Assembly (NCBI GenBank): GCA_964458775.1
Contig: CAYWLQ010000008.1
Span: forward strand, 2,895 to 66,894
From: an uncultured Myxococcales bacterium
Lineage (GTDB): Bacteria; Myxococcota_A; Polyangia; JAAYKL01
Direction: 5' to 3'
Length of the DNA: 64,000 nt
The notes below the pieces were generated by a model. That model saw only the letters and a program-made list of their open reading frames with translations. It searched no databases and was not told the DNA's origin. Within the stretch, counting starts at the first letter, position 1. Each line of letters opens with the position of its first letter. This document shows, piece after piece, positions 4-28,675 of this stretch. Both the position numbers and the translations under genes were made by a program.

Positions 4-1782
4 TTATGCCTTTTCAAGGTATCGGAAAATTGTGCGAGGATCCACGTCGAGATCTCTTGCTGTCTTGGTTCGATTTCCGTTATTTCGCTCCAGCGTTTGC
101 AGAATATAGTCTCGTTGAAATTGTTCTTTTGCATCTGCCAACGAAAGAATTTCTGTTTTGTTTTCAGGATTAATGTCCAAATCCTGAGGACCTATCATTG
201 TTCCGTCACAAAGAATTACCGCCTTCTTAATTTTGTTTTCCAGTTCTCTCACGTTTCCCTGCCAAGGGTGTTTTTTCATTGCTAAAACCGCTCCGGGAGT
301 AAAGCCCTTGGCTTTGGTGCCGTATTTTTGAGAAAATTCCTGAAGCATATACCTGGCAAGCAGAAGAATGTCGTCGCCTCTGTCTTTTAAGGCAGGCAGT
401 TCCAAATGAACTACATTCAATCTGTAGTAAAGGTCTTCTCTGAATCTTCCTTCAGAAATCTCTTTTTCCAAATCGCGATTTGTAGCTGCGATAATGCGTA
501 TATCAACTGACTCCGGTTTTACTGCTCCGACCCTTACAACTTGGTGTTCCTGAAGCACCCGGAGTAATTTTACTTGGAGCGACAGAGGCATTTCTCCTAT
601 TTCATCTAAGAACAAAGTGCCTTTGTGAGCTGCTTGAAATTTTCCGTCTTTGTTTGTAACCGCTCCGGTAAAGGCTCCTCTTATGTGGCCGAAAAATTCA
701 CTTTCCATTAAGGACTCCGGAATTGCCCCGCAGTTGACTGAAACAAACGGGCCCTTAACTCTTGGGCTTCGTCGATGAATCTCATTGGCAATAAGCTCTT
801 TACCTGTACCGGTCTCTCCGGAGATTAAAACAGAAACATCCGCTGTGGCTACCTTTGCGACCTTTCTATAGACTTCGAGCATTGACGGAGAACTGCCCAA
901 TATTTCGCCAAATCTTTGTTTATTGAGCTCTTCGGAAAGGGACATGTTTTTAAGTTTTAATACATCAACAAGCAAAGCGTTTTGTACCAAAATTGATGCT
1001 TGAGCTGCAAAGACCGTTAACAGGTCCAGGCTTTTTGCTTGAAACAGCCCTCTTATATCATCATTGCCCACATAGATTAGACCCAATAACCGTCCCCTGT
1101 CTAATAGCGGAACACACATAACAGAGGATAACCTTAAATTGATAACCGACTCTGCGCTTGCAAAGGCATCATCGTGCATTGCATCTGAAACAATTAGAGG
1201 TTTTTTGCTCTCTACCACTCTGGCAATAATGCTGTCTGACAACTGAGCGACCGCGTTTTGCATATTTTCCTGTTTGATATTTCTGGCGACCTTGATTGAA
1301 GGATGACCGTCCTCAAATAGTACCAAAAAACCTTTAGAGGCACCGGTAAGATCTACTACATAGTCCATTAGTTCTTTGAGTATGTCTGCAACATTGTCAT
1401 GGGCTAACAGCTTTTGAGAGAAGTTATGTAATTGATTAAGAATGCTCAGCGCCTGGCCGGTTTCGTCTTTTTTCTCAACAGCTGAAGAGGGGGGAGCAAG
1501 CATACTAAATATAAATTCTAGGTCTCCGAGTTGAAAACGGTGGTCATGACCAAGTTTAATTTTGCGCCTGGCTTTGCCTCCTTCAATTATGCAGTCAAGG
1601 CCGTTGTCACTGACAGCGATAAAATGCTTTTTGTCAAAGACGAGCTGGATATGACGATCGTGCAGATTGGCATTTTTAATACAAATGTCACAGGAGTTGT
1701 CTGCGCCTATAGAAGTAATGCTTTTAGATATAGGGTAGTGTTCCTTTTGACCGTTTTCAGCTCTCCATATTAAAGTCGGCAT
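4..1782 (-). CDS. Sigma-54-dependent transcriptional activator, FHA-GAF-AAA+(sigma54)-Fis HTH architecture (no receiver domain)
   Basis: N-terminal FHA-like block (SIGADNSCDICI...HAVSDNG...LGDLEFIF), central GAF-like region, Walker A GETGTGKE, GAFTGA motif (HIRGAFTGA), C-terminal Fis-type HTH (RTKTARDLDVDPRTIFRYL); complete ORF with stop at 4-6. Confidence 0.85.
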   Translation of the reverse strand: MPTLIWRAENGQKEHYPISKSITSIGADNSCDICIKNANLHDRHIQLVFDKKHFIAVSDNGLDCIIEGGKARRKIKLGHDHRFQLGDLEFIFSMLAPPSSAVEKKDETGQALSILNQLHNFSQKLLAHDNVADILKELMDYVVDLTGASKGFLVLFEDGHPSIKVARNIKQENMQNAVAQLSDSIIARVVESKKPLIVSDAMHDDAFASAESVINLRLSSVMCVPLLDRGRLLGLIYVGNDDIRGLFQAKSLDLLTVFAAQASILVQNALLVDVLKLKNMSLSEELNKQRFGEILGSSPSMLEVYRKVAKVATADVSVLISGETGTGKELIANEIHRRSPRVKGPFVSVNCGAIPESLMESEFFGHIRGAFTGAVTNKDGKFQAAHKGTLFLDEIGEMPLSLQVKLLRVLQEHQVVRVGAVKPESVDIRIIAATNRDLEKEISEGRFREDLYYRLNVVHLELPALKDRGDDILLLARYMLQEFSQKYGTKAKGFTPGAVLAMKKHPWQGNVRELENKIKKAVILCDGTMIGPQDLDINPENKTEILSLADAKEQFQRDYILQTLERNNGNRTKTARDLDVDPRTIFRYLEKA

Positions 1783-3761: not shown

Positions 3762-5393
3762 TTATCTTTTTGATTTTCCTGACTTATTCGGCTTACCTTT
3801 TCTGCTTTTTGCAGATTTTGACAAAGCCGACCGAACAGGTTTTAGGATTACAGATATTGTCTGATCTTTGTCAGGAATAAATGATTTTACAAAGACAGAA
3901 TTAGAAGAGGCTTCTACTTTGAGAAGCATCGGAAGATTTGATTTTTCAAAGTGCGCTGTCGTTGTTGTCGGTTGCCCGTCAACGGTTATCTTTGCGTTAT
4001 CAGGAGCATTTTCAATTTTTAGTGTAACCATGTCTAGAAACAGATCGGGATCATCGGTTTGCTTATATTCAGCATTTACATAATCAACAAGTTCCGGTTC
4101 GGGAGAAACAGCTGTTTCGGTAATTACAGGAGGATTTACAGATGCTCTGCGATAGGGCCACCAAGATGATTTTTCCACGAAGAATAAAACCTTTTGAGCC
4201 AGAGAGATTCCTGATTCAAAGATTGTTTGGTTTTGTTTTTTATAGTACGCAGCAGCTCCTGCAATTCCCATGGTAATGATCAAAAATATTGTAATTATTG
4301 TCTTAATTACAGAAGATTTTTTCTCAATTTTTGTACTGTTGCTAAACGACGGATTATATAGGTTATCAAGAGTCTCATCCTTGACTGTTTTATTGAGCGA
4401 GGCAAAAGATTGATACGAGGTGTTTGTGTTTGTGCCGGGAGGCGGAGGGGGAGCTAATGAATTTTTCAACGCCAATGCTGCCGAAGCACTCATATAGGTG
4501 TCTTCAGCAAAAGGCATTAAATCAGATATCATATCCGGTACCCTAAGATATCTTTTGTCCCGATCTTTCTCCATTGCTTTTTCTATTACGTGTACAAGCC
4601 CTGTAGGTAAGTCGGGAAGAATATTTGCGATGGGCTTAGGGGTTTCCAAAAGAATGTCACTCAATACTGCATTGTAGCTGGAGCCGCGGAAAGGCAGTCT
4701 GCCGGAAAGCATTTCATATAACATGACGCCTGCAGCCCATATGTCAATTCTGCCGTCAATATCCTTACCGCGAGCAGATTCGGGAGACATATAATTGGGT
4801 GTGCCCAGCACTGTACCTGTTTTGGTTAAGCCTTGATCTCCCTCTGCTTCGGTTTGCATTTTTGCTATACCGAAGTCTAAAAGCTTAACATCATGTCTGC
4901 CGCGATTGTCTATAGATAAAAATACGTTGTCAGGCTTTAAATCCCTGTGGATAATACCTTTTTCGTGGGAAACAGCCAGTGCGGAAAGTACCTGCAAAAT
5001 AATAGAAACGGCTCTCTCAGGTGCCATTCGACCTTCATCTTTTATACATGAGGACAGGCTTTGGCCTTTTAAAAGCTCCATTACTATAAAGGCTGTTCCG
5101 TCTTCCTCTCGACCGACATCAAAAATCTCAACAATATTGGGATGGCCGATGGCGCTGGCAGCTTGAGCTTCTCGAAAAAAACGATTTACAACATCTTCTG
5201 AGTCAGCAAACTCCTTATGCATTACTTTTACAGCTACACGTCTTTCGATAAGGGTGTGTTCAGCTTCATATACTGAACCCATACCGCCCTCTCCGATCAG
5301 TTTGGTCAGTCGGTATTTACGGTCGAATATTCTTCCGATAGTCTCATTCATATTCTGCTTTTCCAAGTCCGGGCCAAAAGACCGATTTTGCAA
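3762..5393 (-). CDS. Hanks-type Ser/Thr protein kinase, single-pass membrane, extracellular PEGA-like domain and Lys-rich tail
   Basis: GEGGMGSVY glycine loop, VAVK lysine, HRDLKPDN catalytic loop, DFGIAK, SPE motif; TM helix IKTIITIFLIITMGIAGAAAYY; C-terminal ITVDGQP...beta-rich segment resembling PEGA. Confidence 0.85.
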   Translation of the reverse strand: MQNRSFGPDLEKQNMNETIGRIFDRKYRLTKLIGEGGMGSVYEAEHTLIERRVAVKVMHKEFADSEDVVNRFFREAQAASAIGHPNIVEIFDVGREEDGTAFIVMELLKGQSLSSCIKDEGRMAPERAVSIILQVLSALAVSHEKGIIHRDLKPDNVFLSIDNRGRHDVKLLDFGIAKMQTEAEGDQGLTKTGTVLGTPNYMSPESARGKDIDGRIDIWAAGVMLYEMLSGRLPFRGSSYNAVLSDILLETPKPIANILPDLPTGLVHVIEKAMEKDRDKRYLRVPDMISDLMPFAEDTYMSASAALALKNSLAPPPPPGTNTNTSYQSFASLNKTVKDETLDNLYNPSFSNSTKIEKKSSVIKTIITIFLIITMGIAGAAAYYKKQNQTIFESGISLAQKVLFFVEKSSWWPYRRASVNPPVITETAVSPEPELVDYVNAEYKQTDDPDLFLDMVTLKIENAPDNAKITVDGQPTTTTAHFEKSNLPMLLKVEASSNSVFVKSFIPDKDQTISVILKPVRSALSKSAKSRKGKPNKSGKSKR

Positions 5394-7974: not shown

Positions 7975-10900
7975 TTACCGATTTCTTTTTTTTATAACAC
8001 CCAAACTATCCAGTTTTCGGTAGAACGTTCGTCTTGGAATACCTAGGATTTCTGCGGCCTTGCTGCGATTCCATTTGACTGATTCCAAAACAGATAGAAT
8101 TTTGCTGTCTTCTTCGCTTACAGATTTGGATGTGGTCGGTTTTGAATTAGGCTTTGGGACTTCACTGGATGAAATGAAAATCTCATCGGCTCTGATGGCT
8201 TTAGAGTCGTCTCCTATTGCTAATGCTCTGCGTATTGATTGCTCAAGCTCTCGTACATTTCCCGGCCAGTTGTGTTTTAGCAGCATTGCGGCAGCATCTT
8301 TGGAAAAACTTCTTGGTATCGAAGCGAATCTTACCGCTTCTCTTTCTACTATTCTTCCTGCTAAGGGTAAAATATCTTCTTTGCGCTTTCTTAAAGGCGG
8401 CAGCTCAATTGTTACGACCTGCAATCGATAAAGAAGGTCTTTTCGCAATCCGCCTTCGTTTGCCAGTTTATCTAGGGGAATCCTGGTGGATGCTATAATG
8501 CGCACATTGACACGCAGGTTTCGCTGCGAACCCACCGGGGAAAAGGTTCCGTCTTGCAGCACGCGTAACATGACTGTTTGCATTCTTGGAGACATGTCTC
8601 CTATTTCGTCCAAATATAGGGTCCCTCCGTCAGCAGCAGACAGCAAGCCCTGTCTTTCTGTGTCTGCTCCCGAAAAGGCGCCTTTTTCGTGGCCGAACAA
8701 CATGGATTCCACCAAGGTGTCCGGCATGCTGCCGCAGGAAACAGTTACAAAAGGTTTGTCCTTTAGATTGCTCTGTTCGTGAAGAACCCGTGCAAGCAAG
8801 TCTTTGCCTACGCCGCTCTCACCGGAAAAAATTACCGGAACATTTAAGTCTTTAACTCGCTCTACCGTCGTAAAGACCTTTCGCATTTCCGGCGATGTGC
8901 CGAAAACACCATGATAATCGCCTTCGCCTTCAATTTGCCGTCTTAGTCGTTCTAATCTTTCTCTGGCGGTTTTGAGATTCAAATCCCTTTGATTCAACTC
9001 TTCCAGTCTCTTTTCATAAGCTTCTTGTAGGGTTTTCCTCGCTGTCTGAAGCTCATCGGCTCTTTGTCGAAGTTCGTTTATTAAACGATTTTGTGAAAGA
9101 GCAATGGCAACCTGATTTGCAAAAGCGGAGAGTACTCGCAGATCTCTCTTATCAAATCGACCTCTTCGCAAACGGTTTTCGAGATACAAAACTCCTAGAG
9201 GGCTGCCTCTATAGGATACGGGAAGACATGCCACTGATTTAAGCTTAAGCTCATGAATTGACATAAACTCATTGAATCGGCTGTCCTGCATAGCATCCAC
9301 AGTTACTACCGGTTCGTTATCGAGAAATACAGATTCAGCTATAGAGCAACTGAATCGGTTTTCCGGTGCACCGGTATCAGCGTATTCACAACCGAAAGCT
9401 TTTCCGTCGGATACCGCTCTGATTTCTAAAACTGTTGATTCAGAACCTTCTGCCGGAAGTAAGATCATTCCTCGTTCCGCTCCGGTCAGCTCAATTGCAG
9501 AGCTGAGAATCATTTCTAATAAACGGTTAAGGTTGCTTTCTGAAAGTAGTTGTTTGTTTAAATCTAGAACTCGATAGAGAGCTTCTGCTTCAGTATCCGA
9601 TGTCTTGTCGGGATTATCGAAAAGCTCTGTTGATGAAAATTGATTGGAAGAGGATATTTCACTGAAAAGAGTTCTAACCTCGGATCTTCGCACATCCTGC
9701 CAAAATGCTGCGCGATGCTCATGGGATAAACCTGCACATAGACTTTCGAGAATATTTTCAGCTTCTCTTAAATGTTGCCGCATCAAAAAGACAGAGCCTT
9801 TTACTGACAGTCCTTTTGCGAGTGCCAAATGAGCCTGCCATGCAAAATCCTTGGCCCCTTGATATGTTTGATTTTCGCAGAGCGCCTCTAGCTTTTTCAG
9901 TCCCAGATCCAATTGTCCCTCAGCGATGAGCAGCATTCCCTCATGAAGAGCCAGTGACTCTTCAAACATTCTGCCCTCTTCCTCTCGATTTCTGCTTGAA
10001 GCTAGTTGAATGAGTTCCCTAGCTTTTATTATATCCTCTTTTTCCCCTCTTCTTAAAAGGCAGCCTGCGGTTTCTAATTCAATTTCACACACTATCGCAT
10101 AACGAGAGAGCGATATAAATCCCTTTCTGGCTTCAGCATAAAAACGAAGCGCATCTTCTGTTTCACCTCGGGCTGATGCAGAAGCTGCTGTATGAAATTG
10201 AGACCACAATCTTTGTTCGTCATACCCCAAAGATCTTGCTTCCGCTTCGGCCTGTTCCAGTATAAGACCGGCGCGCTCAAAACAGCCCATTTTAATCAGA
10301 GCGTATCCGTAGTTGTTTCTAACGTTGATTCGCATCAAGGGATTAACCGCTGAACGGGACAGCCGAACAGCCTGTTCATAGTGACGAAGAGATTCTGACC
10401 ATTCTTCCTGCCACAATTTCAGGTCACCCAAAACCAATTTGTCACGCATCAAATGAGGAATATCACCGAATTCAAAATGAAGGGCGGCTGCTCGCTCAAG
10501 CGATAGAGTAGCTTCTTTTAAGTTGCCTGATTTTTGATAAACCCAAGCCAAAATATCGATCGACAAAGCAACGGCTCTCATGTCTCCTGCCAATGCAGCA
10601 TCAGATTCTGCTTCCTTAGCAAACATCAGCGCATCATCTCTTCTGCCCTCTTTAACAGCAGACTTGGCGAGCATACCTAACAGATCGGCTCTAACGCGAT
10701 GTGCATTTGGAGCGTCCTTCAATCCTTCTTCTGCTAAAGCGATACATGATTCAGTGTTATGTTGTTGAAAGGCAATTTTGGCCAAAAGATACAGGATGCG
10801 AGCTCGATCCAATGGATTAACGGTCAAAGACAGAGCTTCACGGAGACACTTTTCAGCTTCATGTAAAGATTCTTTGTCAATATATATTCGCCCCAATAGT

Positions 10901-13161
10901 ATTAAGGCTTCTCGTTTAACAGAAAGATCACTACATAGTGCCGGCTTTGAAAGACACTGTTCGGCAGCAGTTAAATCACCTTGAGAAGACAGCACTCTTC
11001 CAAGCTCCAAAGCTAAGAGGAGATAGGTTTGTTCATTATGAGCAACTGCCTCCATCATTGCTGTCAGCAAATGCTGAGCTGCGTGTAATGCTCCGAGTCT
11101 GTAAAGGGATATTGCTACTGCTGTCCCGCGCTCTTCGATTTTTTTTTGGTCTTTGCATTTGGCTGCGTGATACAGCTGTTTTGCTTCATCGGATTCAAGT
11201 GAAAAAGCACGCCTGTGCATTTCTATAAGTCGATTCCAGTCAGCGGCAGCCAGAATTTCTTTGGCAAGAGGAAGAGTTGCTGCGCACCAGCGCGATGCCG
11301 AGCTTTTGAGCCTACCGCTTGCTGTTAAAGACGAAAGTGCGGAATCAACCGATATTGAATCTCTGCCCGAAACAATTGTGATCTCTTCAGCTGAAGCAGG
11401 CCGGTCAAGTACAGCAGCCGCTTCGAGTACGCATCTTTCGATTTCATTGAGGGTTAACAATCTTTCGCGCCAATATGTTTCCAGCTGTTTAGGCGGCCCC
11501 AGGCTTTCCAGTTTTGTCATACCTTCCGGGTTTTTAGAAATATCGTGGAGCAAGGTAGTTACAAAAAGCGGATTTCCTCCGGTATGGGCAAAAATTCGGG
11601 TTACCGCTTCCTGGTCGGCACTTCCAAGAAAACATTCTGTAATGTGGGATGTTTGTTCGAAAGATAAAAGCGGCATTACTAAAGTTTCGGCCGATCCCAA
11701 ATGTGTTTGCCATGAAAAAGATATCTCACACGAAGCTAACACAGCAAGAGGAACATCTCTTTCAACTGCCGCCGCCAAAACCCGCAATACGGCCAGAGTT
11801 TCAAATGATGCTTGTTCCAAACCGTCAATAATAAGCAAGAGCTTTGAACGTTTGGCAATGCCGATTAACAAATCTGAAGTTGATTTGGCTAATACATCCA
11901 GATGTGCATAATTTTTTTGGGGTTCACTAAGTGCTGATATTAACTGTTTTGTCCGCTGAATCGCCTCATCATCTTTTTCTAAAAAGAATACTGCCTGTTC
12001 GATTATATCTGCAAAGGGACGAAGAAGGCTGCCGCTACCGCCTGATTCGAGAACCGGTATATGTGCCAATTGAGCCCACCACTTGATACTGCGCAAAAGT
12101 GCGCTTTTCCCGGTTCCGGATTGACCTTCTACAACAACCAGAGGAGACAAATCCGATATTTGAAATCTTTTTTGCAAAGCTTCTTGCAGTTTAAAGAACT
12201 CACGATCACGACCTAATGACTCACTAAATACAGCACAGTCTGCAAAACGATCTTCATCGACAGCAGCGGTAAAAATTGATGTGAGAGCCGCTTCCGCTTC
12301 GACAGCCGTCGGAAATCGATGGTTAGGATTTCTTGATAATAATCTTCCTATAATACTTTGTAGGGCTTCTAGTGTTGAGGATTCCTCCTGTTTGACAATT
12401 AGGCGTTTTAATACCGGTAGACTCCGCTTTTCACCCAAATGTCCCTTAACAATTTCGGAAACCGACCCTTCAAAAGGAGGTGCTCCCGAAAGAATTTCAA
12501 ACAATGTAGCACCGAGGGAATATAGATCAGCTCTGGCATCGGCTCTTTTTTTTTCGATAACTTCAGGTGCCATATAGGGAACGGTTCCTCGCAGCTTGGC
12601 GTCTTCATTGTCTGATCTGACAAAAGAAAAATCTATTAGCTTTGCCACACCGTCCGAAGAACAAATAATGTTTCCCGGTTTAAGATCACCGTGAACCAAA
12701 CCTCGTCCGTGTAGGAGTTTTAGTGAACGGCATATTTCGACAAACAACCTTATCGCATCAGGAAGCCGCATATTTTGAGTTGCTGACATGAGGTCTTCAC
12801 CGGGAATATACTCCCTGGTAAAAAAAACTCTTCCGTCGAGAGACGCCCCAAAATCGTACACTTCAGAAAGCCTGGGATGTTTCAAACCTGCCAAGGCTTC
12901 AAATTCGTGTTTAAAAACCGAACGCCAGTTCTCGTCGGCTTTGGGTCTAAGAATCTTAAACACCAACATCTTGTTGTCCAGATAACGGTCCTGTACCAAA
13001 TGAACCGTTCCCTGTCCGCCCTCTCCCAGTCTTCTCAGATGCGTGTACCGAGTTTCCAGGCTTTGAAACAACTTCTCATCTGAAACGATCTCAAAATCTT
13101 TGTTTGGTGACTCATCGTGTGCCATAATGTGCACAGTGGCACAGCTGTAGTTTGGTGACAA
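7975..13161 (-). CDS. Giant multidomain signalling protein: Ser/Thr kinase - STAND/AAA NTPase - TPR array - GAF - sigma-54 AAA+ activator - Fis HTH
   Basis: 1728 aa. Kinase: LGEGGQGTV, VFKIL Lys, HGDLKPGNI catalytic loop (non-RD), DFS, APE. Walker A GQSGTGKS ~aa 345. Long TPR-like helical region. GAF-like segment. Second Walker A GESGVGKD, GAFSGA motif, C-terminal HTH (ILGIPRRTFYRKL). Confidence 0.85.
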   Translation of the reverse strand: MSPNYSCATVHIMAHDESPNKDFEIVSDEKLFQSLETRYTHLRRLGEGGQGTVHLVQDRYLDNKMLVFKILRPKADENWRSVFKHEFEALAGLKHPRLSEVYDFGASLDGRVFFTREYIPGEDLMSATQNMRLPDAIRLFVEICRSLKLLHGRGLVHGDLKPGNIICSSDGVAKLIDFSFVRSDNEDAKLRGTVPYMAPEVIEKKRADARADLYSLGATLFEILSGAPPFEGSVSEIVKGHLGEKRSLPVLKRLIVKQEESSTLEALQSIIGRLLSRNPNHRFPTAVEAEAALTSIFTAAVDEDRFADCAVFSESLGRDREFFKLQEALQKRFQISDLSPLVVVEGQSGTGKSALLRSIKWWAQLAHIPVLESGGSGSLLRPFADIIEQAVFFLEKDDEAIQRTKQLISALSEPQKNYAHLDVLAKSTSDLLIGIAKRSKLLLIIDGLEQASFETLAVLRVLAAAVERDVPLAVLASCEISFSWQTHLGSAETLVMPLLSFEQTSHITECFLGSADQEAVTRIFAHTGGNPLFVTTLLHDISKNPEGMTKLESLGPPKQLETYWRERLLTLNEIERCVLEAAAVLDRPASAEEITIVSGRDSISVDSALSSLTASGRLKSSASRWCAATLPLAKEILAAADWNRLIEMHRRAFSLESDEAKQLYHAAKCKDQKKIEERGTAVAISLYRLGALHAAQHLLTAMMEAVAHNEQTYLLLALELGRVLSSQGDLTAAEQCLSKPALCSDLSVKREALILLGRIYIDKESLHEAEKCLREALSLTVNPLDRARILYLLAKIAFQQHNTESCIALAEEGLKDAPNAHRVRADLLGMLAKSAVKEGRRDDALMFAKEAESDAALAGDMRAVALSIDILAWVYQKSGNLKEATLSLERAAALHFEFGDIPHLMRDKLVLGDLKLWQEEWSESLRHYEQAVRLSRSAVNPLMRINVRNNYGYALIKMGCFERAGLILEQAEAEARSLGYDEQRLWSQFHTAASASARGETEDALRFYAEARKGFISLSRYAIVCEIELETAGCLLRRGEKEDIIKARELIQLASSRNREEEGRMFEESLALHEGMLLIAEGQLDLGLKKLEALCENQTYQGAKDFAWQAHLALAKGLSVKGSVFLMRQHLREAENILESLCAGLSHEHRAAFWQDVRRSEVRTLFSEISSSNQFSSTELFDNPDKTSDTEAEALYRVLDLNKQLLSESNLNRLLEMILSSAIELTGAERGMILLPAEGSESTVLEIRAVSDGKAFGCEYADTGAPENRFSCSIAESVFLDNEPVVTVDAMQDSRFNEFMSIHELKLKSVACLPVSYRGSPLGVLYLENRLRRGRFDKRDLRVLSAFANQVAIALSQNRLINELRQRADELQTARKTLQEAYEKRLEELNQRDLNLKTARERLERLRRQIEGEGDYHGVFGTSPEMRKVFTTVERVKDLNVPVIFSGESGVGKDLLARVLHEQSNLKDKPFVTVSCGSMPDTLVESMLFGHEKGAFSGADTERQGLLSAADGGTLYLDEIGDMSPRMQTVMLRVLQDGTFSPVGSQRNLRVNVRIIASTRIPLDKLANEGGLRKDLLYRLQVVTIELPPLRKRKEDILPLAGRIVEREAVRFASIPRSFSKDAAAMLLKHNWPGNVRELEQSIRRALAIGDDSKAIRADEIFISSSEVPKPNSKPTTSKSVSEEDSKILSVLESVKWNRSKAAEILGIPRRTFYRKLDSLGVIKKRNR

Positions 13162-13384: not shown

Positions 13385-14644
13385 CTATTTAAATTTGCCT
13401 TCGAAATTTTGAAATTTGACAGCGGCTTCATCGAGAAGTTTTTTCCCTATTCTGTCGGGACGGTCCAAGACGGTAGGAGTTATAACAATAAGGCTTTCTG
13501 TTTGTTCTTCGACATGGCGGCGTGTTCCGAAAAGCAATCCCAATATGGGTATTTTGGAGAGATACGGAAAGCCCTCTTTGGTAACGCCTTTTGATTCGGA
13601 GTTAAGCCCTGATAACATTATGGATTGCCCGATTCCGAGATGAACCAAAGTATCCACACGAGACATGGTTCTGCCCGGAACATTTTGAGTGGTTTCGGAC
13701 AGGTCTGAAACTTCAGCGATTACCTCCAAATCGAGGGTTTTATCGTCGTCAGAAAGTCTTGGAGTAACTATCAGCCTGGCACCGTAGGGAATAGTCCTCA
13801 ATTCCGCAGCTTGTGAACCGGCAACGGCTACATTTACTTCGCCTCCTGCTTCATAGGTAGATTTTCGTCCGTTTACAGTTATAAGAGCAGCCTTTTTATG
13901 AATCTTTATCCATCCGTATTGAGCGGCTACTTCTAGAGAAGGCATTGCTTGGTCCATCAGTTGATAAGCTGCGCTCAAAGTACCGGTCAGCAAGTCAATA
14001 CTACCGGAAAGCACACCCGAACCGCCGTAACTCGACGGCCAAGATATTCCGAAGCGATCATTGTCGCGTTTTTTAAGTTCGACAAAAGTCAAATCAAGCC
14101 GAATGTTGGTGCGAGGCTGAACAACATCCGGATCAATATAAATCAGAGATATTGCTTGACCGTTGTAACCCTTAACGGCTTGTTCCACACGTTTCTTCTC
14201 ACTGTCCGTGCGAACCTCTCCGTCAACAAATACACGGGCTCCCACCTTTTTGAAGGTTAAGGTTTTATCCTGTGCAAAAAGCTCTTTAAGCTCTTTTTCG
14301 ACCGTTTCAGGCATTCTAGCAAATACAGTTATAAAAACAGTCTTCCTGCTTCCTTGTTTATCAAAAAGCATTAAAGAAGTAGTTCCTGATCTAATTGCAG
14401 TAATGATCATCTTCTTGCCGTCTCGCGGAACTTTAATTTCAATAACGCCCTTGGTACTCTCCGAGAAACTGTCAATACTTTCGGCGTCAAACATATATTG
14501 TTCGCCAATCGTCATAGCCAAATCATCGGCATTATCAGATGCCGTTGATGTGCGAACCGAAAATTCCTGAGCCCTAAGCAGTTTGGCGGCAGACAGCACA
14601 ATAACTGCGAACATTATCACAACAATTATGATATGAGATTTCAT
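13385..14644 (-). CDS. Secretin-family outer-membrane protein, CpaC/RcpA-like (Tad/Flp-pilus type), orphan
   Basis: Signal peptide; C-terminal secretin motif (GQSIMLSGL...FPYLSKIPILGLLFG...ESLIVITPTVL); 419 aa matches CpaC-size secretins; no other tad/T2SS genes in window. Confidence 0.7.
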   Translation of the reverse strand: MKSHIIIVVIMFAVIVLSAAKLLRAQEFSVRTSTASDNADDLAMTIGEQYMFDAESIDSFSESTKGVIEIKVPRDGKKMIITAIRSGTTSLMLFDKQGSRKTVFITVFARMPETVEKELKELFAQDKTLTFKKVGARVFVDGEVRTDSEKKRVEQAVKGYNGQAISLIYIDPDVVQPRTNIRLDLTFVELKKRDNDRFGISWPSSYGGSGVLSGSIDLLTGTLSAAYQLMDQAMPSLEVAAQYGWIKIHKKAALITVNGRKSTYEAGGEVNVAVAGSQAAELRTIPYGARLIVTPRLSDDDKTLDLEVIAEVSDLSETTQNVPGRTMSRVDTLVHLGIGQSIMLSGLNSESKGVTKEGFPYLSKIPILGLLFGTRRHVEEQTESLIVITPTVLDRPDRIGKKLLDEAAVKFQNFEGKFK

Positions 14645-14758
14645 TTCAAATCTCCCTTCAAGAGCTACCTTCGTAAAAACGAAAAAAAAGTTTCCGATTT
14701 AACCGGTCTTTTTTTGAGAAAGGTGATTTTTTTTGAAAAATTTTTTAAAAAAGGTTTG

Positions 14759-14800
14759 TTGCGGAAAAAATTAAAACGCAACCTGCACGGCAGATTGCTA
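14759..14800 (-). terminator. Candidate weak intrinsic terminator downstream of split transketolase
   Basis: 6-bp stem GTTGCG/CGCAAC (13-nt AT loop) followed on the minus strand by AAACCTTTTTT; ~50 nt after tkt C-subunit stop. Confidence 0.25.
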
Positions 14801-14836
14801 GTGTTTTATCATCGGATGTAGGGGAATTAATGTTGT

Positions 14837-15850
14837 TTACAAAGCTTCGGGTTTGGCTTCGGAATGGACTGATTCGATTCTTACCTTTGACAGGTCATCG
14901 TCCGTATATTCTATTTTTATTCCGGCAAGGTCTGATGCCGCTGTGATTACTGCTGCTGCGTCAAATCCGTGATATTTCATCAGGTATTGTTTTGAGGCTC
15001 CGTGGCTGAAGGTATCTTTTAATCCTAGTCTTACAAGTTTTTTTGATATGCCGAAATCAGCCATTTTCTCAGCTATTATTGACCCCAGCCCTCCTATGAT
15101 GCTGTGGTTTTCTACTGTTATAACTCCTAGTCGCGGCGTTCTTAGCAAATCATATATCACAGGATTGCTAAAAGGTTTATGAGTAGATATGTGCGTGTGA
15201 CATACCGACAGACCCGCTTTCTCTAGTACGGATACGGCCCTTATCGCTTCTTCAGTGCAGATTCCTGATGAAAACAGCGTAATGTCTTTTCCCTCGGAAA
15301 GTATTCTCGGTTCGTCAAGTTTTATCGGCCGGTCCGAGGGAAAGAGTCTGGGAATTTCTCCTCTAAGTGCTCTCACGTAGACAGGGCCCGGTATGTCAAA
15401 TACCAAATCTATGGTACTCGCCGCCTCTGTCGCATCACCGACTTCGAGGACAGTCATGTTGGGAAGCGCCCTCATTACCGCTATATCCTCTATTGCCTGG
15501 TGCGTTGCTCCGCCCGGCGTCATTATTCCAGGGAGAAATCCGAACATCTTTACGGGCACATTAGGATAGGCAACAGACATGGCGACCTGGTCATATGCTC
15601 TTCTGTAAATGAATACAGCAAAAGTATGGATGAGGGGTATTATATCCTCCCGCGCTAAGCCTCCTGCCAAAGAAACCATATTCTGCTCTGCTATTCCGCA
15701 TGTATAGAGTCTATCGGGAAATGCTTCTTTAAAATGTGTTGCCTCGCATGAGTTTGTCAGGTCAGCGGTTAACACCACAAATTTACTGTTTATGCTGCCG
15801 TATTCTGCTAACCTTTTTGAGTGTACTTGGGAAAAAATTTCCATCAACAA
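14837..15850 (-). CDS. tkt: Transketolase, C-terminal (pyrimidine-binding/C-domain) subunit of split enzyme
   Basis: 337 aa with transketolase Pyr and C-terminal domain similarity; overlaps upstream N-subunit gene by 7 nt. Confidence 0.85.
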   Translation of the reverse strand: MLMEIFSQVHSKRLAEYGSINSKFVVLTADLTNSCEATHFKEAFPDRLYTCGIAEQNMVSLAGGLAREDIIPLIHTFAVFIYRRAYDQVAMSVAYPNVPVKMFGFLPGIMTPGGATHQAIEDIAVMRALPNMTVLEVGDATEAASTIDLVFDIPGPVYVRALRGEIPRLFPSDRPIKLDEPRILSEGKDITLFSSGICTEEAIRAVSVLEKAGLSVCHTHISTHKPFSNPVIYDLLRTPRLGVITVENHSIIGGLGSIIAEKMADFGISKKLVRLGLKDTFSHGASKQYLMKYHGFDAAAVITAASDLAGIKIEYTDDDLSKVRIESVHSEAKPEAL

Positions 15851-16758
15851 CTCTCCTTATTTAGCAAGTCCAGCATTTTTGCGTATCTGTTCCTTTCGTC
15901 TTCGTTTCCTAACCTTAAATAGTGCAGTTTCCCCATTTTTTCTTTAAGTTCAGGAACTCCCCTCATCGGATCCGTATTGCACAGCACCGCTAAAGGTTTG
16001 TCCTTGTGTGGTGTAGCGGCCGCCTCAAATAAGCTATTGGGATCGTGCCCGTCAGCAACAACTACTTCAGCTCCGAAATCTTTTAGTTTGTTCGCCAGCG
16101 GCCCCAATTCCATCACGGAGTTAACCATGCCGTCGCACTGTTGTCCGTTAACGTCAACGTATATTCCTACGGTATCCATTTTGTAATGGCTCATAAACTG
16201 AAACGCTTCCCAGACCATTCCGATTTGAAACTCGCCGTCCGACATAAAGACCCAGGTTTTTCCAGTCTCTTTGTTGATTCTTCTGCCTAAAGCCATACCG
16301 ATACCTTGGCTTAAGCCCTGCCCCAAAGATCCCGTCATTACTTCCATACCGGGCGAATGCTCAGCTCCGATCTGTTCCAATGTGTAGCCGTCAATATTGT
16401 AGTAGTCCATGGAGTCGGAAGACAGTCTGCCGGTCTGAATAAGAGCTGCGTATAGAACCAACGAATAATGAGTAGGCGACAGTATGAATCTGTCCAGATA
16501 GCTTTTGTGATCGCCGTTAAAAAGATATCCCGGTTTATAGTCTTTGTTATCCGCCGAAGGAACGCCAAGAAATTTACCGGCAGATATGGGCTTACTGACC
16601 TGCTCAAGATTCATTATGCCCCCGTACAGACAAGCAAAAATCTCAGCCGATGAACAGGCCTGGCTTAGGTAGCCTCCTCCATTTTTCAACACCTTTTCGA
16701 GAACACTTACTCTGATACCGTGAGCAATATCTTTTGCCTTTGATATTTTGTCTTCCAT
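15844..16758 (-). CDS. tkt: Transketolase, N-terminal thiamine-diphosphate-binding subunit of split enzyme
   Basis: 304 aa; TPP-binding GDG...motif region (FMSDGEFQIG), HxxxH-like active-site region; immediately precedes C-subunit. Confidence 0.85.
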   Translation of the reverse strand: MEDKISKAKDIAHGIRVSVLEKVLKNGGGYLSQACSSAEIFACLYGGIMNLEQVSKPISAGKFLGVPSADNKDYKPGYLFNGDHKSYLDRFILSPTHYSLVLYAALIQTGRLSSDSMDYYNIDGYTLEQIGAEHSPGMEVMTGSLGQGLSQGIGMALGRRINKETGKTWVFMSDGEFQIGMVWEAFQFMSHYKMDTVGIYVDVNGQQCDGMVNSVMELGPLANKLKDFGAEVVVADGHDPNSLFEAAATPHKDKPLAVLCNTDPMRGVPELKEKMGKLHYLRLGNEDERNRYAKMLDLLNKESC

Positions 16759-16861
16759 TGAGCCTCCATCGACCGAGTTGAAAGCAATTTATTTCTGCAA
16801 TACTTTCATCACGTCATCAAGAGATATCTCAATTTCTTTAATATGCTCTATATTGTGGTTT

Positions 16862-18406
16862 TTAAGGACCTCCAGGTATCGGCCATCCGTCTTCATCAAA
16901 GGGCATTTCTGTTATTCTAAGCACCGAGGCGCCGTTGCTCTGTCTGTATGCGTGATAAAAGTGATAAATTTTTTCATCTACTATAATGACCTCACTGTGG
17001 CCGGCTGCTGCATAGTTTACTCCGTCTCCTTGAACCATGAGAGTTCCTCCTCCGTTGAGCATCGGAGTTCCGCTTTTGTCATGATACGGACCCAATATAT
17101 TTTCGGAGCGACCTACCCTGACATTGTAGGTGCTGTTTGCACCTTGACAGCAGGTGCCCCACGAAACAAAGAGATAGTAATAACCGCATCGACGAAACAA
17201 CACAGGAGCCTCAATAGATGAGTTCCAGGCTAGACGAGTTAACTCATTCCCTACCCGATTTCCGTCTTGATCTAGCTCAAACGCCATTATTCCATCCCAA
17301 AAGCTGCCGAAAGCCAACCACGGAGTCCCGTCCTCATCGAGTTCCGCATCCGCATCTATTGCGTTGTATCGTTCATTACCCTGTGTGCAAATTACCGGTC
17401 CGTGATCTGTCCATGGGCCTGTTATGTATTCGGCCGTTAGATGTGTTATACACGAAATATTGTCTCCAAAAACTGCAGAAAAAGAAGAGTAAATATGATA
17501 TTTGCCGCCGAAAAAGATAATGTCCGGAGCCCACGGAAAATTAAACTCCTGTCCCTGAATACCGGCTAACCATTCGGTTGACCATGAGGGGTATCTGTTG
17601 CCGTAGATATTGCCTGCATTGGTCCAGTTTAACAGGTTGGTAGAACGTGCCATGGGAATATAGTTTCCCGTCCAAAGAACATAGAACGTATCTCCTTCTT
17701 GTATCATAGAGGGATCGTGAACTCCGAAATTGGCAACATTGAGAGGCTGAGGAGCTGTACCTTGATAAATGCCGATCTCGCAACGGTCATCCGCATCAGT
17801 GTCTGAGTCACTGTCAGTATCAGTATCTGTATCTGTATCTGCGTCAGCGTCGGTATCTGCATCGGTATCAGCGTCGGTATCTGCATCGGTATCTGCATCG
17901 GTATCCGCGTCGGTGTCTGCGTCGGTATCTGCATCGGTATCTGCATCGGTATCTGCATCGGTATCTGCATCGGTATCAGTGTCGGTATCAATGTCAGTAT
18001 CGGAATCTGTATCTGTATCGGTATCTGCGTCAGTGTCCGAATCCGCATCATTATCCGAGTCTGAGTCAGCATCGGCATCAGCATCGGCATCAGCATCGGC
18101 ATCAGTATCGGCATCAGCATCAGCGTCTGCATCGGTGTCAGCGTCAGTATCTGTGTCAGCATCTGAATCTGAATCTGCGTCCGTATCTGCGTCCGTATCT
18201 GCGTCCGTATCTGTGTCAGCATCATTATCCGAATCCGAGTCAGCATCAGCATCAGAGTCAGCGTCAGCGTCACTGTCCGCATCACTTTGACCGTTAGAGC
18301 TATCTGTGTCTATAAATTCATCTTGATTATTCTTGTCGGAAGAGCAAGCGGCAACAAGCACAAAAAAACATACAGGCATAGGCAATTTCATTATCGACTC
18401 CTTCAT
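16862..18406 (-). CDS. Lipoprotein glycoside hydrolase family 43 (arabinanase-like) with ~170-aa Asp-Thr/Asp-Ala/Asp-Ser repeat stalk
   Basis: Signal + lipobox (LVAACS); pure D-X dipeptide run; catalytic domain starts [16 protein letters not shown] (GH43 N-terminal Asp motif), 5-bladed propeller-like remainder. Confidence 0.7.
17790..18295. repeat. Tandem 6/12-bp DNA repeats (GATACC/GATGC-type) encoding D-T/D-A/D-S stalk
   Basis: Visible as gtcggtatctgcatcggtatc... iterations; generates spurious ORFs in all other frames. Confidence 0.85.
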
Positions 18407-18494
18407 TTCTTAGAGAAAATACTCTCTACCGGTAGTTTGGGTTGAAGTTAACTAATCCGTCATAGAAAAACATAAAAATAAAAAAAAATACTGA

Positions 18495-20057
18495 CTACTC
18501 GCCGGATGGCGATTCTATATCTGTAGAAAGAGCCATAGGAATGCCGAAATTAGGTGTGCCGTCTTCGTTCCACATTATTTTTTGTATGCGAGTGGTTCGA
18601 TCTGTCCAACAGCTTCCTCTGGGATTAGTTGTGGCATGATAGGCTATCCAGTGTTCAGTTCCGTCCGGCGACATAAAAAATCCGTTATGACCTGTGCCGT
18701 AAGCACCGTTTGCCTGGGAAAACACCGGTGTGGGGTGCTTGGTCCAAGAGGATGACATTGCAGGATTAAAACCGGTAAGCTCCAACATGCCCAGTTTATA
18801 TCCGGGATCGGCACACTGGCTTGCAGAGTAGATAACAAAAATGCGACCGTTTCTATAAAGAGGTTCGGGTCCTTCGTTAACCGAGTCGCTTCCCTCCATT
18901 TCCCATGGATATTCAGGCATTGAAAGAAGTGTTCCCGCTTGAGGATTTTTATTAGTCGTCGCGGTAGGCCCGGACATGGGAACAAGCCATATACGCTGTG
19001 TAGCTCCTGACCAAGCCGAATACATAAAATAGCGATTGCCTTCTACTTCCAACACACTTCCGTCAATAGCCCAGCCATTCATCATGGTTCCGACATAGGT
19101 ATAAGTTCCCATCGGACCGTCCGGATCGTCTTCCGAAGCTCCGCTCAACACATGTGTTTGCTGGGTACCGAGATCCTTTCCGTCTCCGGCAGTGTAGTAC
19201 ATATACCAGCGACCGTCCAGAAGATGAAATTCCGGTGCCCACATGTTGCAGCATCGAGAAGGTGTACTGTCAGACCAAATAATATCAGGACGTGCATCTT
19301 TGAGTTCTTGAATTGTTCGTCCCTTTTTCATGGTAAGAGTCGTGCCCCAGGTTGTCGCAGCCAAATAGTAATACCCCTTATAATAAAGCATCCAAGGATC
19401 AGATCCGTGTGATGCATTTAGAGGGTTGTTAAAGTAAGAGGGAGGCTTGGTTTCTGAATCAGTTTCAATATCAGAGTCAGTGTCGCTGTTTGTATCTGAA
19501 TCGCCGGCCGTGTCGGTATCCGTGTCTGTGTCGGTATCCGTGTCTGTGTCGGTATCTGTGTCCGTATCCGTGTCGGTATCCGTGTCGGTATCCGTATCTG
19601 TGTCCGTATCGGTATCTGTGTCCGTATCGGTATCTGTGTCCGTATCGGTATCCGTGTCGGTATCCGTATCCGTATCGGTGTCAATGTCCGTATCTGTATC
19701 GGAATCCGAGTCGCTATCTGCATCTGAGTCACTATCTGCATCCGAATCGCTGTCTGAATCTGTATCAGCATCACTATCTGAATCCGAATCTGTATCCGTA
19801 TCTGAATCTGAGTCCGTATCACTGTCTGCATCCGTGTCACTATCGGAATCCAAGTCGCTATCTGCATCTGCATCTGCATCAGTATCAGTATCAGTACTGC
19901 TAAAACCGCTGTCCGTATCATGGTTCATTTCATTGTCGACATTGTCAGAAGCACAAGAAGAGACAAAGACAACCATAACAGTGCAAAAACAAAACTCTTT
20001 AAAAAGCACACGAGAAACTGAAGTTTTCTTCAATACCAATTCTTCAGAAAAAAACAT
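18495..20057 (-). CDS. Secreted GH43-family glycoside hydrolase with ~150-aa Asp-Thr/Asp-Ser repeat stalk
   Basis: Signal peptide; DTDTDT... run (>40 consecutive DT); catalytic region begins [21 protein letters not shown], beta-propeller-like; second paralogous architecture to 16862-18406. Confidence 0.6.
19455..19905. repeat. Tandem 6-bp DNA repeats (GTATCC/GACAC-type) encoding D-T/D-S stalk
   Basis: gtgtcggtatccgtgtctgtgtcggtatc... iterations. Confidence 0.85.
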
Positions 20058-20266: not shown

Positions 20267-21481
20267 TTAGATAACCGATATAAGAGAACAGTCATAGTCA
20301 CCTATAAGAGAATCCTGTCGTAGAATTACGTAATTGGCTGCTTGCTCACATACAAAGTACATCGCATCTACTACATTCCCTTCTATTTGTTGGGGATTGA
20401 TACAAGATGCTGTCAGTATATCATTTTCAGCGATACCTCTAACTATGTATCCGTCGGAAGTAACTCCCTGAAAGTAGTATTCATACCAACTGAGGGATAA
20501 AATATCTTTGCCTTCTGCGATTGTAGAAGCTTTAGCGGATTCGGCATTTCCGACAACCACGGTACCGTTGTTGCCTGCTGCCACAAACTTTCCTTGGCGA
20601 TCTGATACAGCAACTAGGTCTTCAACCGTATCTACAGGAATGCGTTTCCACTCATTTTGTCGGTGAATATATAGTCCTCCCTTAGGCCCAACCGCCAGAT
20701 AACACCAGCCTTCTTCGCAACTCATAACCGTCATACGATTAACAGTTATATTTGCTTGAGGCGACAGCTCTTCTTTCCATTGTGTCCATTGAGAGCTTTT
20801 TGAGGAGCATTTTATTCCGTTTCCGTAAGCACAAATTTCATCTATTGAAGGCGTTTCCGTTCTTAGCAATCTGGCCAATCCGGTTAGTTTTGAATCTCTA
20901 TGTATTTCTTCAAATAGGCCTATATCATCTGTCAGTTTGTATATTGCGCTTTCAGTTCCGTCTGTTGCTAAAATAAAGGCCGAGTTGATCTTCTCAACCG
21001 GATCATAACGACAAATAATTGATTTCGGAGGCAGCGGAATACTAGCTTCAAATGACGATAGAATATTATTGTCTGCAAACGGACTCGTAAAAACAGCCGC
21101 AGCTCTATAACCGTTTTCCTCCTGGAGAGACAGCAGCAAACAATTTCCGCTCATAGCAACAAAACGGCTGTTTTCGAGAAGATTGTTTGCAAAAAAAACC
21201 GAATACGTTGAAACATCAGAACATTCCAAAGAAGTTAAAGTATCAACTAAATCTGAATTTGTATCAGCGTCTTCAACTGAGTCGGGCGCAGAATCTGTAT
21301 TTGTGTCGGAATCAAAGTGGGTTTGTGACTCAAAATCAGAACCGGTATCTGAATCCAAAGTTTTTTCTTCTGTACTTATATCAACGGGCAAAAAACCTTC
21401 TTGTAATCCCGGACCGCAGGACGGCAAAAAAATCAAGATTAGGCATACAATCGATACACATGATTTAAAAATGCACATCAT
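20267..21481 (-). CDS. Hypothetical acidic lipoprotein, last gene of ECF/caspase cassette
   Basis: Start moved to internal ATG overlapping the caspase-gene stop (AAATGATG); lipobox FLPSCG; Asp/Ser/Thr-rich linker then ~330-aa beta-rich domain with no recognisable motif. Confidence 0.5.
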   Translation of the reverse strand: MMCIFKSCVSIVCLILIFLPSCGPGLQEGFLPVDISTEEKTLDSDTGSDFESQTHFDSDTNTDSAPDSVEDADTNSDLVDTLTSLECSDVSTYSVFFANNLLENSRFVAMSGNCLLLSLQEENGYRAAAVFTSPFADNNILSSFEASIPLPPKSIICRYDPVEKINSAFILATDGTESAIYKLTDDIGLFEEIHRDSKLTGLARLLRTETPSIDEICAYGNGIKCSSKSSQWTQWKEELSPQANITVNRMTVMSCEEGWCYLAVGPKGGLYIHRQNEWKRIPVDTVEDLVAVSDRQGKFVAAGNNGTVVVGNAESAKASTIAEGKDILSLSWYEYYFQGVTSDGYIVRGIAENDILTASCINPQQIEGNVVDAMYFVCEQAANYVILRQDSLIGDYDCSLISVI

Positions 21482-23034: not shown

Positions 23035-23780
23035 TGAGTCGGATTGCTCTCCTTCATCACAGTAATGGAGCGCACGATAAGTTCCTTCCCTTGCTTTGGA
23101 ATAAAAGCATCTTTTCTATTAAACGGCTTTGAAGAAAAGACACCTGTGTAGGTCTCTTCACCAAGAACATCATCCAATAAAATGCTTCCGTCCATTATAT
23201 GAATACCGGCAGCTTCTATTCTTAAAGGTTCAACGTCCTGTTCAGGTGAGTTATCAGGATAAAACGGTGACAGTTTTCCGCTTTTATCCTTTGAAAAGAT
23301 TGTCAAGTATCCGGGTTCTCCAACTGTCACTATAAACATAATAGAATCGCCTTCTTTTAGTGAGGTTCCGTCCTTTACTTCAAACTGCTTGCCTTGTCGA
23401 TTTCCTATGATCTTCATAGAAAATTCGCCTTTAAAAGCTATTCGGTCGCTGTCTTGTGAATTCTCAGTTCTATCTATACCGAAAAATAAGAATAAGAGGG
23501 CAGCTGCTGCTGCGGCAAATAGACCTGCCAATGCAAAGGATTTAAAAGCCGTACTTCGTGTTTTGCTTTGACCAAATTTTTGATCAATCTCAGAGTTAAG
23601 TCTTCTGATTCGATTGTCTTCGTCTTTTGAAAACTCTCTAATATTTGTATCCATCTCTTCGGACAACTTGGTACAAGCAGCACACAATTCTAAATGACAT
23701 CTAATATTCTCTGCATCTAATTGCTCCAAATCATTTGCCTTGTAACGTGACATCAGTAGGTGCGAAGGACAATCTGTCAT
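23031..23780 (-). CDS. Zinc-finger (Hx3Cx2C) anti-sigma factor, single TM, periplasmic beta-rich sensor domain
   Basis: CHLELCAAC motif in N-terminal cytoplasmic part, TM AFKSFALAGLFAAAAAALLFLFFGI, ~130-aa C-terminal extracytoplasmic domain; sits directly after ECF sigma gene; 4-nt overlap with caspase gene. Confidence 0.7.
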   Translation of the reverse strand: MTDCPSHLLMSRYKANDLEQLDAENIRCHLELCAACTKLSEEMDTNIREFSKDEDNRIRRLNSEIDQKFGQSKTRSTAFKSFALAGLFAAAAAALLFLFFGIDRTENSQDSDRIAFKGEFSMKIIGNRQGKQFEVKDGTSLKEGDSIMFIVTVGEPGYLTIFSKDKSGKLSPFYPDNSPEQDVEPLRIEAAGIHIMDGSILLDDVLGEETYTGVFSSKPFNRKDAFIPKQGKELIVRSITVMKESNPTQ

Positions 23781-26360: not shown

Positions 26361-26381
26361 CAGAGGAGGATATTTTTTTTC

Positions 26382-28670: not shown

Positions 28671-28675
28671 TTTTT

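Follow-up and report, generated by a model that had tools for sequence, protein, structure and literature searches.

A putative signal integrator combining a Ser/Thr kinase, a STAND NTPase with TPR sensor and a sigma-54 activator module in one polypeptide of an uncultured Myxococcales bacterium

STAND proteins rest in a closed, ADP-bound state in which they are autoinhibited by their sensor, and an inducer brings about opening, nucleotide exchange and multimerisation, with effectors placed at either end of the chain (PMC6468293). MalT and the Pyrococcus horikoshii protein PH0952 (PDB entry 6mfv) are assembled from a P-loop nucleotide-binding domain (NBD), a helical domain with a GxP motif, a winged helix and a sensor of tetratricopeptide repeats (TPR), and they act through one small DNA-binding effector. 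PknK of Mycobacterium tuberculosis also belongs to the TPR-sensor STANDs. Bacterial enhancer-binding proteins (bEBPs), which activate sigma-54 RNA polymerase, are the second group of close relatives considered here. NifA, NorR and FhlA share the order GAF domain, AAA+ core and Fis-type helix-turn-helix (HTH), and the GAF domain of NorR represses the AAA+ domain (PMC2941729). In NtrC1 and DctD, the AAA+ core comes after a helical linker, and a coiled coil holds the off-state dimer. Here we analyse a gene on the minus strand (7975..13125) of a 64-kb window, that is, the whole stretch of 64,000 nucleotides taken from contig CAYWLQ010000008.1 of an uncultured Myxococcales bacterium (assembly GCA_964458775.1), whose predicted product joins both of these designs to an N-terminal Hanks-type Ser/Thr kinase.

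The predicted protein shares with MalT and PH0952 all four of the parts named above, and the position of its effectors at the ends of the chain is typical of STANDs (PMC6468293). However, where MalT and PH0952 have a single small DNA-binding effector, it has two, namely the N-terminal kinase and a C-terminal GAF-bEBP-HTH unit that is itself an AAA+ protein, and its STAND Walker B reads DG..E instead of the DD of the MalT/PH0952 type. It follows NifA, NorR and FhlA in the order of its C-terminal domains, but differs from them by a predicted 74-residue coiled-coil linker and by about 1190 additional N-terminal residues. It resembles NtrC1 and DctD in having a helical linker in front of the AAA+ core, and an NtrC1 structure described as "inactive state" (1ny5) was the top Foldseek match of the C-terminal model; in contrast to these two proteins, it has a GAF domain in place of the receiver, its helix is about three times longer, and its input does not come from a histidine kinase. 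The overall likeness is that of a MalT/PknK-type STAND grafted on a NifA/NorR-type bEBP, the PknK side of this likeness drawing on annotation labels.

Architecture of the protein and its family

The open reading frame (ORF) listing of the window contains one uninterrupted minus-strand ORF, 7975..13161, of 1728 codons counted from a TTG. The ATG at 13125 is likely to be the better start, because NCBI lists precisely this protein of 1716 aa on a 68,600-bp contig and the N-termini of the homologues align there (MAHDES in the query; MAHNES, MAQNTS and MTHNEP in the closest homologues), and all residue numbers below refer to this 1716-aa protein. The original prediction had described a single chain of 1728 residues; the one unbroken ORF agrees with it, whereas the likely product has 1716. 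Profile matches and two AlphaFold2 models built on 52-sequence alignments, one for residues 1-1190 (predicted local distance difference test score, pLDDT, 87.3; predicted template-modelling score, pTM, 0.83) and one for residues 1150-1716 (pLDDT 85.3), gave the order Hanks kinase, STAND NTPase, TPR (~530 aa), GAF, 74-residue helix, sigma-54 AAA+ core and Fis-type HTH, and in these models all seven modules are present with the predicted folds expected of them. None of the hydrophobic segments of the 1716-aa protein has the length needed to cross a membrane as a helix. The coding sequence and its parts are as follows:

7975..13125, minus strand: complete coding sequence, ATG at 13125, 1716 aa plus stop (the mechanical ORF reaches the TTG at 13161)
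12313..13047, minus strand: Hanks-type Ser/Thr kinase, residues 27-271 (Pfam Pkinase E 7.5e-39; PknB-like fold)
11251..12216, minus strand: STAND nucleotide-binding oligomerisation domain (NOD), residues ~304-625 (Pfam AAA_16 at 304-462, E 6e-12; model pLDDT 87; 6mfv fold)
9658..11238, minus strand: TPR/alpha-solenoid array of ~26 helices, residues ~630-1156 (Pfam TPR_12 and TPR_8 within 739-1001; all-helical model)
9598..9657, minus strand: Ser-rich TPR-GAF linker predicted to be disordered, residues 1157-1176, ISSSNQFSSTELFDNPDKTS (pLDDT <50 at 1161-1176)
9097..9534, minus strand: GAF domain, residues 1198-1343 (Pfam GAF E 4e-17, GAF_2 E 1e-15)
8929..9150, minus strand: single predicted 74-residue helix from GAF to AAA+, residues 1326-1399 (AlphaFold2 model)
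8179..8904, minus strand: sigma-54 AAA+ core and lid, residues 1408-1649 (Sigma54_activat at 1408-1574, E 1.5e-62; AAA_lid_14 at 1579-1649, E 7e-16)
8008..8100, minus strand: Fis-type HTH, residues 1676-1706 (Pfam HTH_8 E 5e-11)

The profile scores at both ends of the protein lay far above their cutoffs (Pkinase, 134 bits vs 31.7; Sigma54_activat, 210.7 bits vs 20.2). In Foldseek comparisons, the kinase model matched PknB (5u94) with a TMt of 0.80, a root-mean-square deviation (rmsd) of 3.1 and 30% identity, and the AAA+ core matched NtrC1 (1ny6) with a TMt of 0.92 and an rmsd of 1.6, the cores of NtrC1, FleQ and NifA together spanning TM values of 0.87-0.92. The best PDB sequence match of the C-terminal module was NifA of Azotobacter vinelandii (9qq6, E 1.5e-76). 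For residues 1-1190 the best PDB fold was that of the TPR-sensor STAND of P. horikoshii (6mfv; E 2.4e-14, 666 columns), followed by PknB-type kinases (TM ~0.80). The helical domain of the STAND part carries its GxP motif as GGNP and is followed by a winged-helix-like region, and most of the TPR array was modelled with pLDDT above 90. Its Pfam TPR_MalT matches remained below the gathering threshold. Because a search of PDB sequences with the STAND and TPR region returned only kinesin light chain TPRs, and no sequence-level match to MalT, the STAND kinship is visible only by fold comparison. In NCBIfam, the N-terminus is PknB-like and the C-terminal third is NifA-, NorR- and NtrC-like below all equivalog cutoffs. 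The best of these models, the nifA model TIGR01817 (E 4.8e-97), covers residues 1183-1660 only and scores 325.9 bits, far under its equivalog cutoff of 528.85, and for this reason the protein is not regarded as NifA. Since fold and sequence matches agree, we assign the central module to a STAND NOD with TPR sensor and the C-terminal module to a complete bEBP. Pfam, NCBIfam and PDB profiles together with the fold comparison thus bear out every domain named in the original prediction (Hanks kinase, STAND P-loop NTPase with TPR, GAF, sigma-54 AAA+ and Fis HTH), and the motifs that it quoted (HGD, DFS, GQSGTGKS, GESGVGKD and GAFSGA) were all recovered at their coordinates by translation. We consider this assignment of domains and family to be close to certain.

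A search of 5.8 billion proteins gave 1744 matches, and the statements on the family made below rest on the best 120 of them. These are 25-63% identical to the query, many being aligned over 97-100% of its length, and all of them are 1420-2250 aa long and have the same Pfam set except P0028 (1236 aa), which is labelled partial by its source and is apparently truncated. Named members come from the complete genomes of Sorangium strains So ce216 (P0076), So ce321 (P0081) and So ce590 (P0098), and the complete Sorangium chromosomes with homologues are 11.8-16 Mb in size; other members belong to metagenome-assembled genomes (MAGs) of Polyangia, Myxococcales, "Deltaproteobacteria", Planctomycetota and Acidobacteriota. 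Their source labels read "sigma 54-interacting transcriptional regulator", "protein kinase" or, for several homologues from the Joint Genome Institute (JGI), "PknK". Judged from these matches, the family is mainly myxobacterial and its architecture is conserved: the relatives in Sorangium and uncultured Myxococcota, Planctomycetota and Acidobacteriota, at ~1450-1800 aa, keep the same seven-module order, including an HGD kinase of the non-RD type, a NOD with GxP motif, TPR, GAF, a helix whose length varies by heptads, the bEBP core and HTH_8. The query is set apart from them by its divergence (25-63% identity), by its place in a subclade with DFS, GAFSGA and GKD motifs, and by its low-GC (~43%) lineage.

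The same picture was obtained with the central part. A HMMER scan with the STAND-TPR part (residues 291-1190) against 1.84 billion representatives at 50% identity gave 79 matches with E <=1e-10. Among the best of them, ~45 have a length of 1640-1760 aa and the module in the corresponding place; the matches further include kinase-STAND-TPR proteins of 1000-1300 aa that lack the bEBP. Two long members (P0061 and P0066, 2160-2246 aa) contain an additional GGDEF domain (PF00990) between the TPR and bEBP parts, a possible cyclic di-GMP (c-di-GMP) output or input. In a scan of genome contigs, most of the signal came from the generic bEBP peptide KHNWPGNV, and the matches were all common sigma-54 activators, 30-44% identical over the C-terminus, with no close relative among them. 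The architecture is therefore not singular, contrary to what the original prediction had implied: it belongs to a populous family that is already well represented in the databases (best 120 of 1744 matches), to which the query adds a divergent, low-GC member. The literature searched, which did not include the Sorangium genome and myxobacterial kinome papers, contained no paper describing or testing this architecture; an earlier description is possible, and those papers reportedly discuss unusual kinase fusions.

Conservation of the three nucleotide sites

The motifs of the kinase, the STAND module and the bEBP module lie at the following positions:

12955-12957, minus strand: codon of the catalytic K57 of the kinase
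12685-12693, minus strand: kinase HGD motif
12625-12633, minus strand: kinase DFS motif
12103-12126, minus strand: STAND Walker A, GQSGTGKS, residues 334-341
11815-11841, minus strand: STAND Walker B, LLLIIDGLE, residues 429-437
8800-8823, minus strand: bEBP Walker A, GESGVGKD
8665-8682, minus strand: L1 loop, GAFSGA
8605-8619, minus strand: bEBP Walker B, LYLDE
AAA+ core, minus strand: R-fingers R1561 and R1567, sensor II R1625

The kinase of the query has a glycine loop (GEGGQG), K57, E74, D147, K149, N152, D165 and an APE motif at 186-188. In an alignment of the query and 120 homologues (n=121), H145, D147, D165 and both the Pro and the Glu of APE were identical in all 121 sequences, N152 in 120, K57 and E74 in 119 each, and K149 in 112. 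The catalytic set is thus intact and under strong constraint across the family. The position of the HRD arginine is Gly in 97/121 and Arg in only 4/121, and the glycine of DFG is replaced by Ser in 34/121. HGD is consequently better read as a family trait than as decay, because Gly is the prevailing residue there, and the query, itself HGD, is a non-RD kinase as had been predicted, one which should not need phosphorylation of its activation loop because it is of the non-RD type. The accompanying suggestion of a pseudokinase is not favoured by the alignment: with the phosphotransfer residues near-invariant (112-121 of 121) and with HGD and DFS as traits of the family and subfamily, a dead kinase is unlikely. 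HGD, DFS, GAFSGA and a Walker A ending in "GKD" are found together in the closest homologues, 28 proteins with identities down to 39%, and to judge from this distribution they make up a subfamily signature rather than signs of decay.

The bEBP site is likewise intact, with strong constraint across the family. Walker A, both R-fingers and the sensor II arginine are kept in ~120/120 homologues, the residue after the Walker B aspartate is Glu in 104 and Asp in 16, and the L1 loop reads GAFTGA in 92 and GAFSGA in 28. VasH of Vibrio cholerae and Vibrio fluvialis, a working activator of the type VI secretion system (T6SS), has GAFSGA in its L1 loop as well, and so do the Desulfovibrio vulgaris bEBPs DVU2827 and DVU3305, both with assigned regulons. 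GAFSGA is thus a natural variant of functional activators, and a dead activator is unlikely.

On the other hand, the STAND site is the least conserved of the three nucleotide sites, which suggests a relaxed or different constraint. Its Walker A lysine is replaced by Arg in 46/121, while the P-loop of the query is intact (GKS). In Walker B the query has D434, followed by Gly at the second position, which is Asp in 102/121, and by E437 three positions on; P0002, 61% identical overall, has lost this Walker B altogether (FGGLE). The proline of the GxP motif, P519, is kept in 118/121. The two ATPase engines of the original prediction are therefore of unequal standing, one site being invariant in the bEBP and the other, in the STAND module, the most degenerate and lacking the second Walker B acid in the query. 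The modules differ in a similar manner in overall conservation, the mean identity within the clade of 28 being highest in GAF and HTH, which tie at 65%, followed by AAA+ (58%), kinase (57%), TPR (44%) and NOD (41%).

A proposed two-checkpoint switch and its alternatives

Two segments connect the modules. The Ser-rich linker between TPR and GAF has a patch of the form [P/S]-S-S...S-S-S, in which S1160 is Ser or Thr in 26/28 and position 1161 in 22/28 of the closest clade. This linker is a candidate phospho-acceptor for the kinase in the same chain, as we infer from its sequence. The second segment is the helix between GAF and AAA+. The spacing from the GAF end (YLENRL, residue 1314) to the bEBP Walker A (residue 1435), for which the interval 8800-9186 spans residues 1314-1442, was 121 residues in 72 sequences, 114 in 34, 86 in five, 128 in three and 93 in one. 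It equals 2 modulo 7 in 115/120 homologues, so that its length changes by whole heptads only, and the five exceptions are three singletons and the two proteins with the GGDEF insertion. Because of this heptad-quantised spacing, and because the model predicts one continuous helix, we take the segment to be a presumed coiled-coil signalling helix in which register matters.

Starting from these domain identities and intact sites, we infer every causal step of the model that follows. The protein would be a soluble, cytoplasmic one-component signal integrator working as a two-checkpoint switch, an overall model that we regard as probable. At rest, the STAND core would be closed and held by the TPR sensor in the manner of MalT and PH0952, and the bEBP would be an inactive coiled-coil dimer kept in this state by the GAF domain and the signalling helix, comparable to the receiver-linker arrangement in NtrC1 and DctD. 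A ligand or partner protein at the TPR array could open the NOD and cause it to oligomerise, and a further signal received by the GAF domain could alter how the helix is registered or packed. With both signals present, the AAA+ domains would form a hexameric or heptameric ring, hydrolyse ATP and remodel sigma-54 RNA polymerase, and the promoters acted on would be those near enhancer sites read by the HTH. The same induced proximity may activate the N-terminal non-RD kinase, which may then act on the Ser-rich TPR-GAF linker in cis or in trans, as feedback or gating, or on external substrates such as FHA-domain regulators, its action being a second, post-translational output. The phosphorylation-gated and ligand-gated switch of the original prediction is in this sense a reasonable reading of the chain. 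The step in which the STAND module drives assembly of the AAA+ ring is more tentative, and we would put it somewhat below an even chance.

The same caution applies to the view that the protein represents a distinct mode of activation, in which oligomerisation of the STAND/TPR part assembles the bEBP ring, the GAF and helix act as the second checkpoint, and the non-RD kinase provides a parallel output or feedback through the Ser linker or FHA-bEBPs. This would take the place of receiver phosphorylation or simple ligand de-repression, and it is a possibility that we hold tentatively. If the proposed mechanism holds, three nucleotide-dependent modules would be coupled in one chain, and a STAND "signalling hub" would drive assembly of a second AAA+ machine at sigma-54 promoters as a compact multi-input AND-gate. 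This would help to understand the networks of kinases and bEBPs, which are very dense in Myxococcota, and might be of use to synthetic biology. The non-RD signatures, the degenerate STAND P-loop, the heptad-quantised helix and the linker Ser patch offer testable handles.

Several observations weigh against the two-checkpoint switch. A canonical ADP/ATP switch may not work in all family members, because of the Walker A Lys/Arg swap, the degenerate Walker B and the DG in place of DD in the query, and the stoichiometry of a STAND oligomer may not match that of a bEBP ring. The ORFs scanned in the 64-kb window (beyond 18 kb, those of >=180 aa) did not include rpoN. A search for sigma-54 promoters, which the original prediction had proposed near candidate targets, was run within the window and yielded no credible promoter, with counts at or below chance: the strict pattern TGGCAC-N5-TTGC with <=1 mismatch gave two matches vs 3.3 expected, both inside long ORFs, and a relaxed scan (GG and GC fixed, >=9/12 matches) gave four vs 13.4 expected. 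In addition, five homologue loci (P0001, P0004, P0006, P0010 and P0011) had no adjacent gene in common with the window.

Some of these points feed into a different account of the central part, in which the STAND-TPR region is a nucleotide-independent scaffold or docking platform, the gate is formed by kinase phosphorylation of the Ser-rich linker together with GAF, and ATP is turned over only in the kinase and the bEBP. The frequent Walker A arginine (46/121), the degenerate Walker B in close relatives, the lack of the second acid in the query, the low conservation of NOD and TPR (41-44% identity) and the conserved Ser patch of the linker would all suit it. However, the query keeps a GxxGxGKS P-loop, D434 and the nearby E437, the GxP proline is nearly invariant (118/121), and the fold matches an ADP-bound STAND (E 2.4e-14). 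For activation of STANDs such as MalT, ATP binding weighs more than hydrolysis. We therefore think this scaffold account unlikely, although it deserves more weight than the other alternatives. A rarer chance still is that the N-terminal domain is a pseudokinase, a dead scaffold or dimerisation module regulating the rest of the protein. Replacement of both the HRD arginine and the DFG glycine would fit it, and pseudokinases often carry non-canonical motifs. It is nevertheless improbable, because the glycine loop, K57, E74, D147, K149, N152, D165 and APE are all present and widely kept (112-121/121), HGD is the norm in the family (97/121), DFS is invariant within the clade of 28, whose identities go down to 39%, and in this clade kinase and AAA+ core show practically the same conservation (57% vs 58%).

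The remaining two alternatives touch the identity of the protein as a whole. Defence systems are known to contain STAND NTPases as well as Ser/Thr kinases, the PADLOC kinase models PD-T4-6 and mad6 match the kinase domain (E ~1e-50), and a gene for a caspase-like protease lies ~8 kb away, so that an anti-phage or conflict STAND of the Avs type could be imagined, with the kinase as toxic effector and with no role in transcription. The 25 best PADLOC matches, however, fall on the kinase and bEBP domains only and none on the STAND module, for which reason the protein does not look Avs-like; its neighbours are housekeeping genes with no defence-island context, and the complete, conserved bEBP and HTH output points to transcription. 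We give the defence reading a very slim chance. That the ORF is an artefact fusing a PknK-like kinase/STAND gene with a separate NifA-like bEBP gene is slimmer still and practically negligible. The contig is metagenome-assembled and the shorter kinase-STAND-TPR proteins without bEBP might be taken as one half of such a fusion, but at least 120 independent full-length homologues have the same order and length, including those from complete Sorangium chromosomes, and the junction itself (linker, GAF and helix) is conserved. As so many colinear full-length homologues stem from independent assemblies, an artefact can be dismissed and the fusion appears genuine and old. The original prediction of a single fused chain is upheld on this point, since the best 120 matches keep the full length and domain set with the exception of the one apparent fragment. 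The two-checkpoint switch remains our preferred model for the protein.

Genomic context

The window has a GC content of ~43%, and its TopA is 68-71% identical to TopA of Myxococcota, Myxococcales and Deltaproteobacteria MAGs. On one flank, the fusion gene faces a convergent UPF0047/YjbQ gene and the gene for RNase J; on the other lies a CpaC-like secretin gene and then a terminator-like hairpin. A scan for sigma-70 promoters and terminators around the fusion gene was uninformative. In the MAG with homologue P0011, the orthologue is directly upstream of dprA-topA-trmFO on the same strand (L086 985-10966), while in the window dprA-topA-trmFO (25320..30037) is 12 kb from the fusion gene and on the opposite strand; the two loci show regional synteny with rearrangement. 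Because the five homologue loci share no adjacent gene with the window, the context gives no functional hint, and the target genes are not adjacent to the fusion gene.

A second bEBP of 592 aa is encoded at 4..1782 on the minus strand, with GAF, Sigma54_activat and HTH_8 domains behind an FHA-like N-terminus (Yop-YscD_cpl E 8.5e-7, under the gathering threshold), which suggests that the organism uses sigma-54. At a distance of 2 kb, a separate Hanks kinase of 543 aa is encoded at 3762..5393 on the same strand (Pkinase E 1e-53). The two are a candidate kinase/FHA-bEBP signalling pair, and their presence in the window is consistent with the kinase/FHA/bEBP style of signalling in myxobacteria.

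Some further features of the window were observed:

~13172-13200, minus strand: GGGCATAACG ... CGTTATTGCCC, an inverted repeat with imperfect arms that precedes the ATG of the fusion gene by ~50-75 nt and lies just 5' of the TTG at 13161; it could be an operator or a hairpin of the 5' untranslated region
13385..20057, minus strand: stretch beginning with the CpaC/RcpA-like secretin gene (419 aa) directly upstream of the fusion gene
14837..15850 and 15844..16758, minus strand: split transketolase beyond the secretin
16862..18406 and 18495..20057, minus strand: two tandem GH43 glycoside hydrolases
21478..23034, minus strand: protein of 518 aa whose Peptidase_C14 domain (E 1e-10) is caspase-like
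20267..21538 and 23031..23780, minus strand: ORFs without Pfam match, overlapping or adjacent to the Peptidase_C14 gene on its two sides, with which they may form a small operon
39542..40879, plus strand: RBFA fused to a DHH/DHHA1 phosphoesterase (NrnA-like), 445 aa, in the nusA-infB-rbfA-truB cluster
52257..53915, minus strand: 552-aa protein whose sole Pfam match is the F5/8 type C domain NADase_transloc (E 7e-9)

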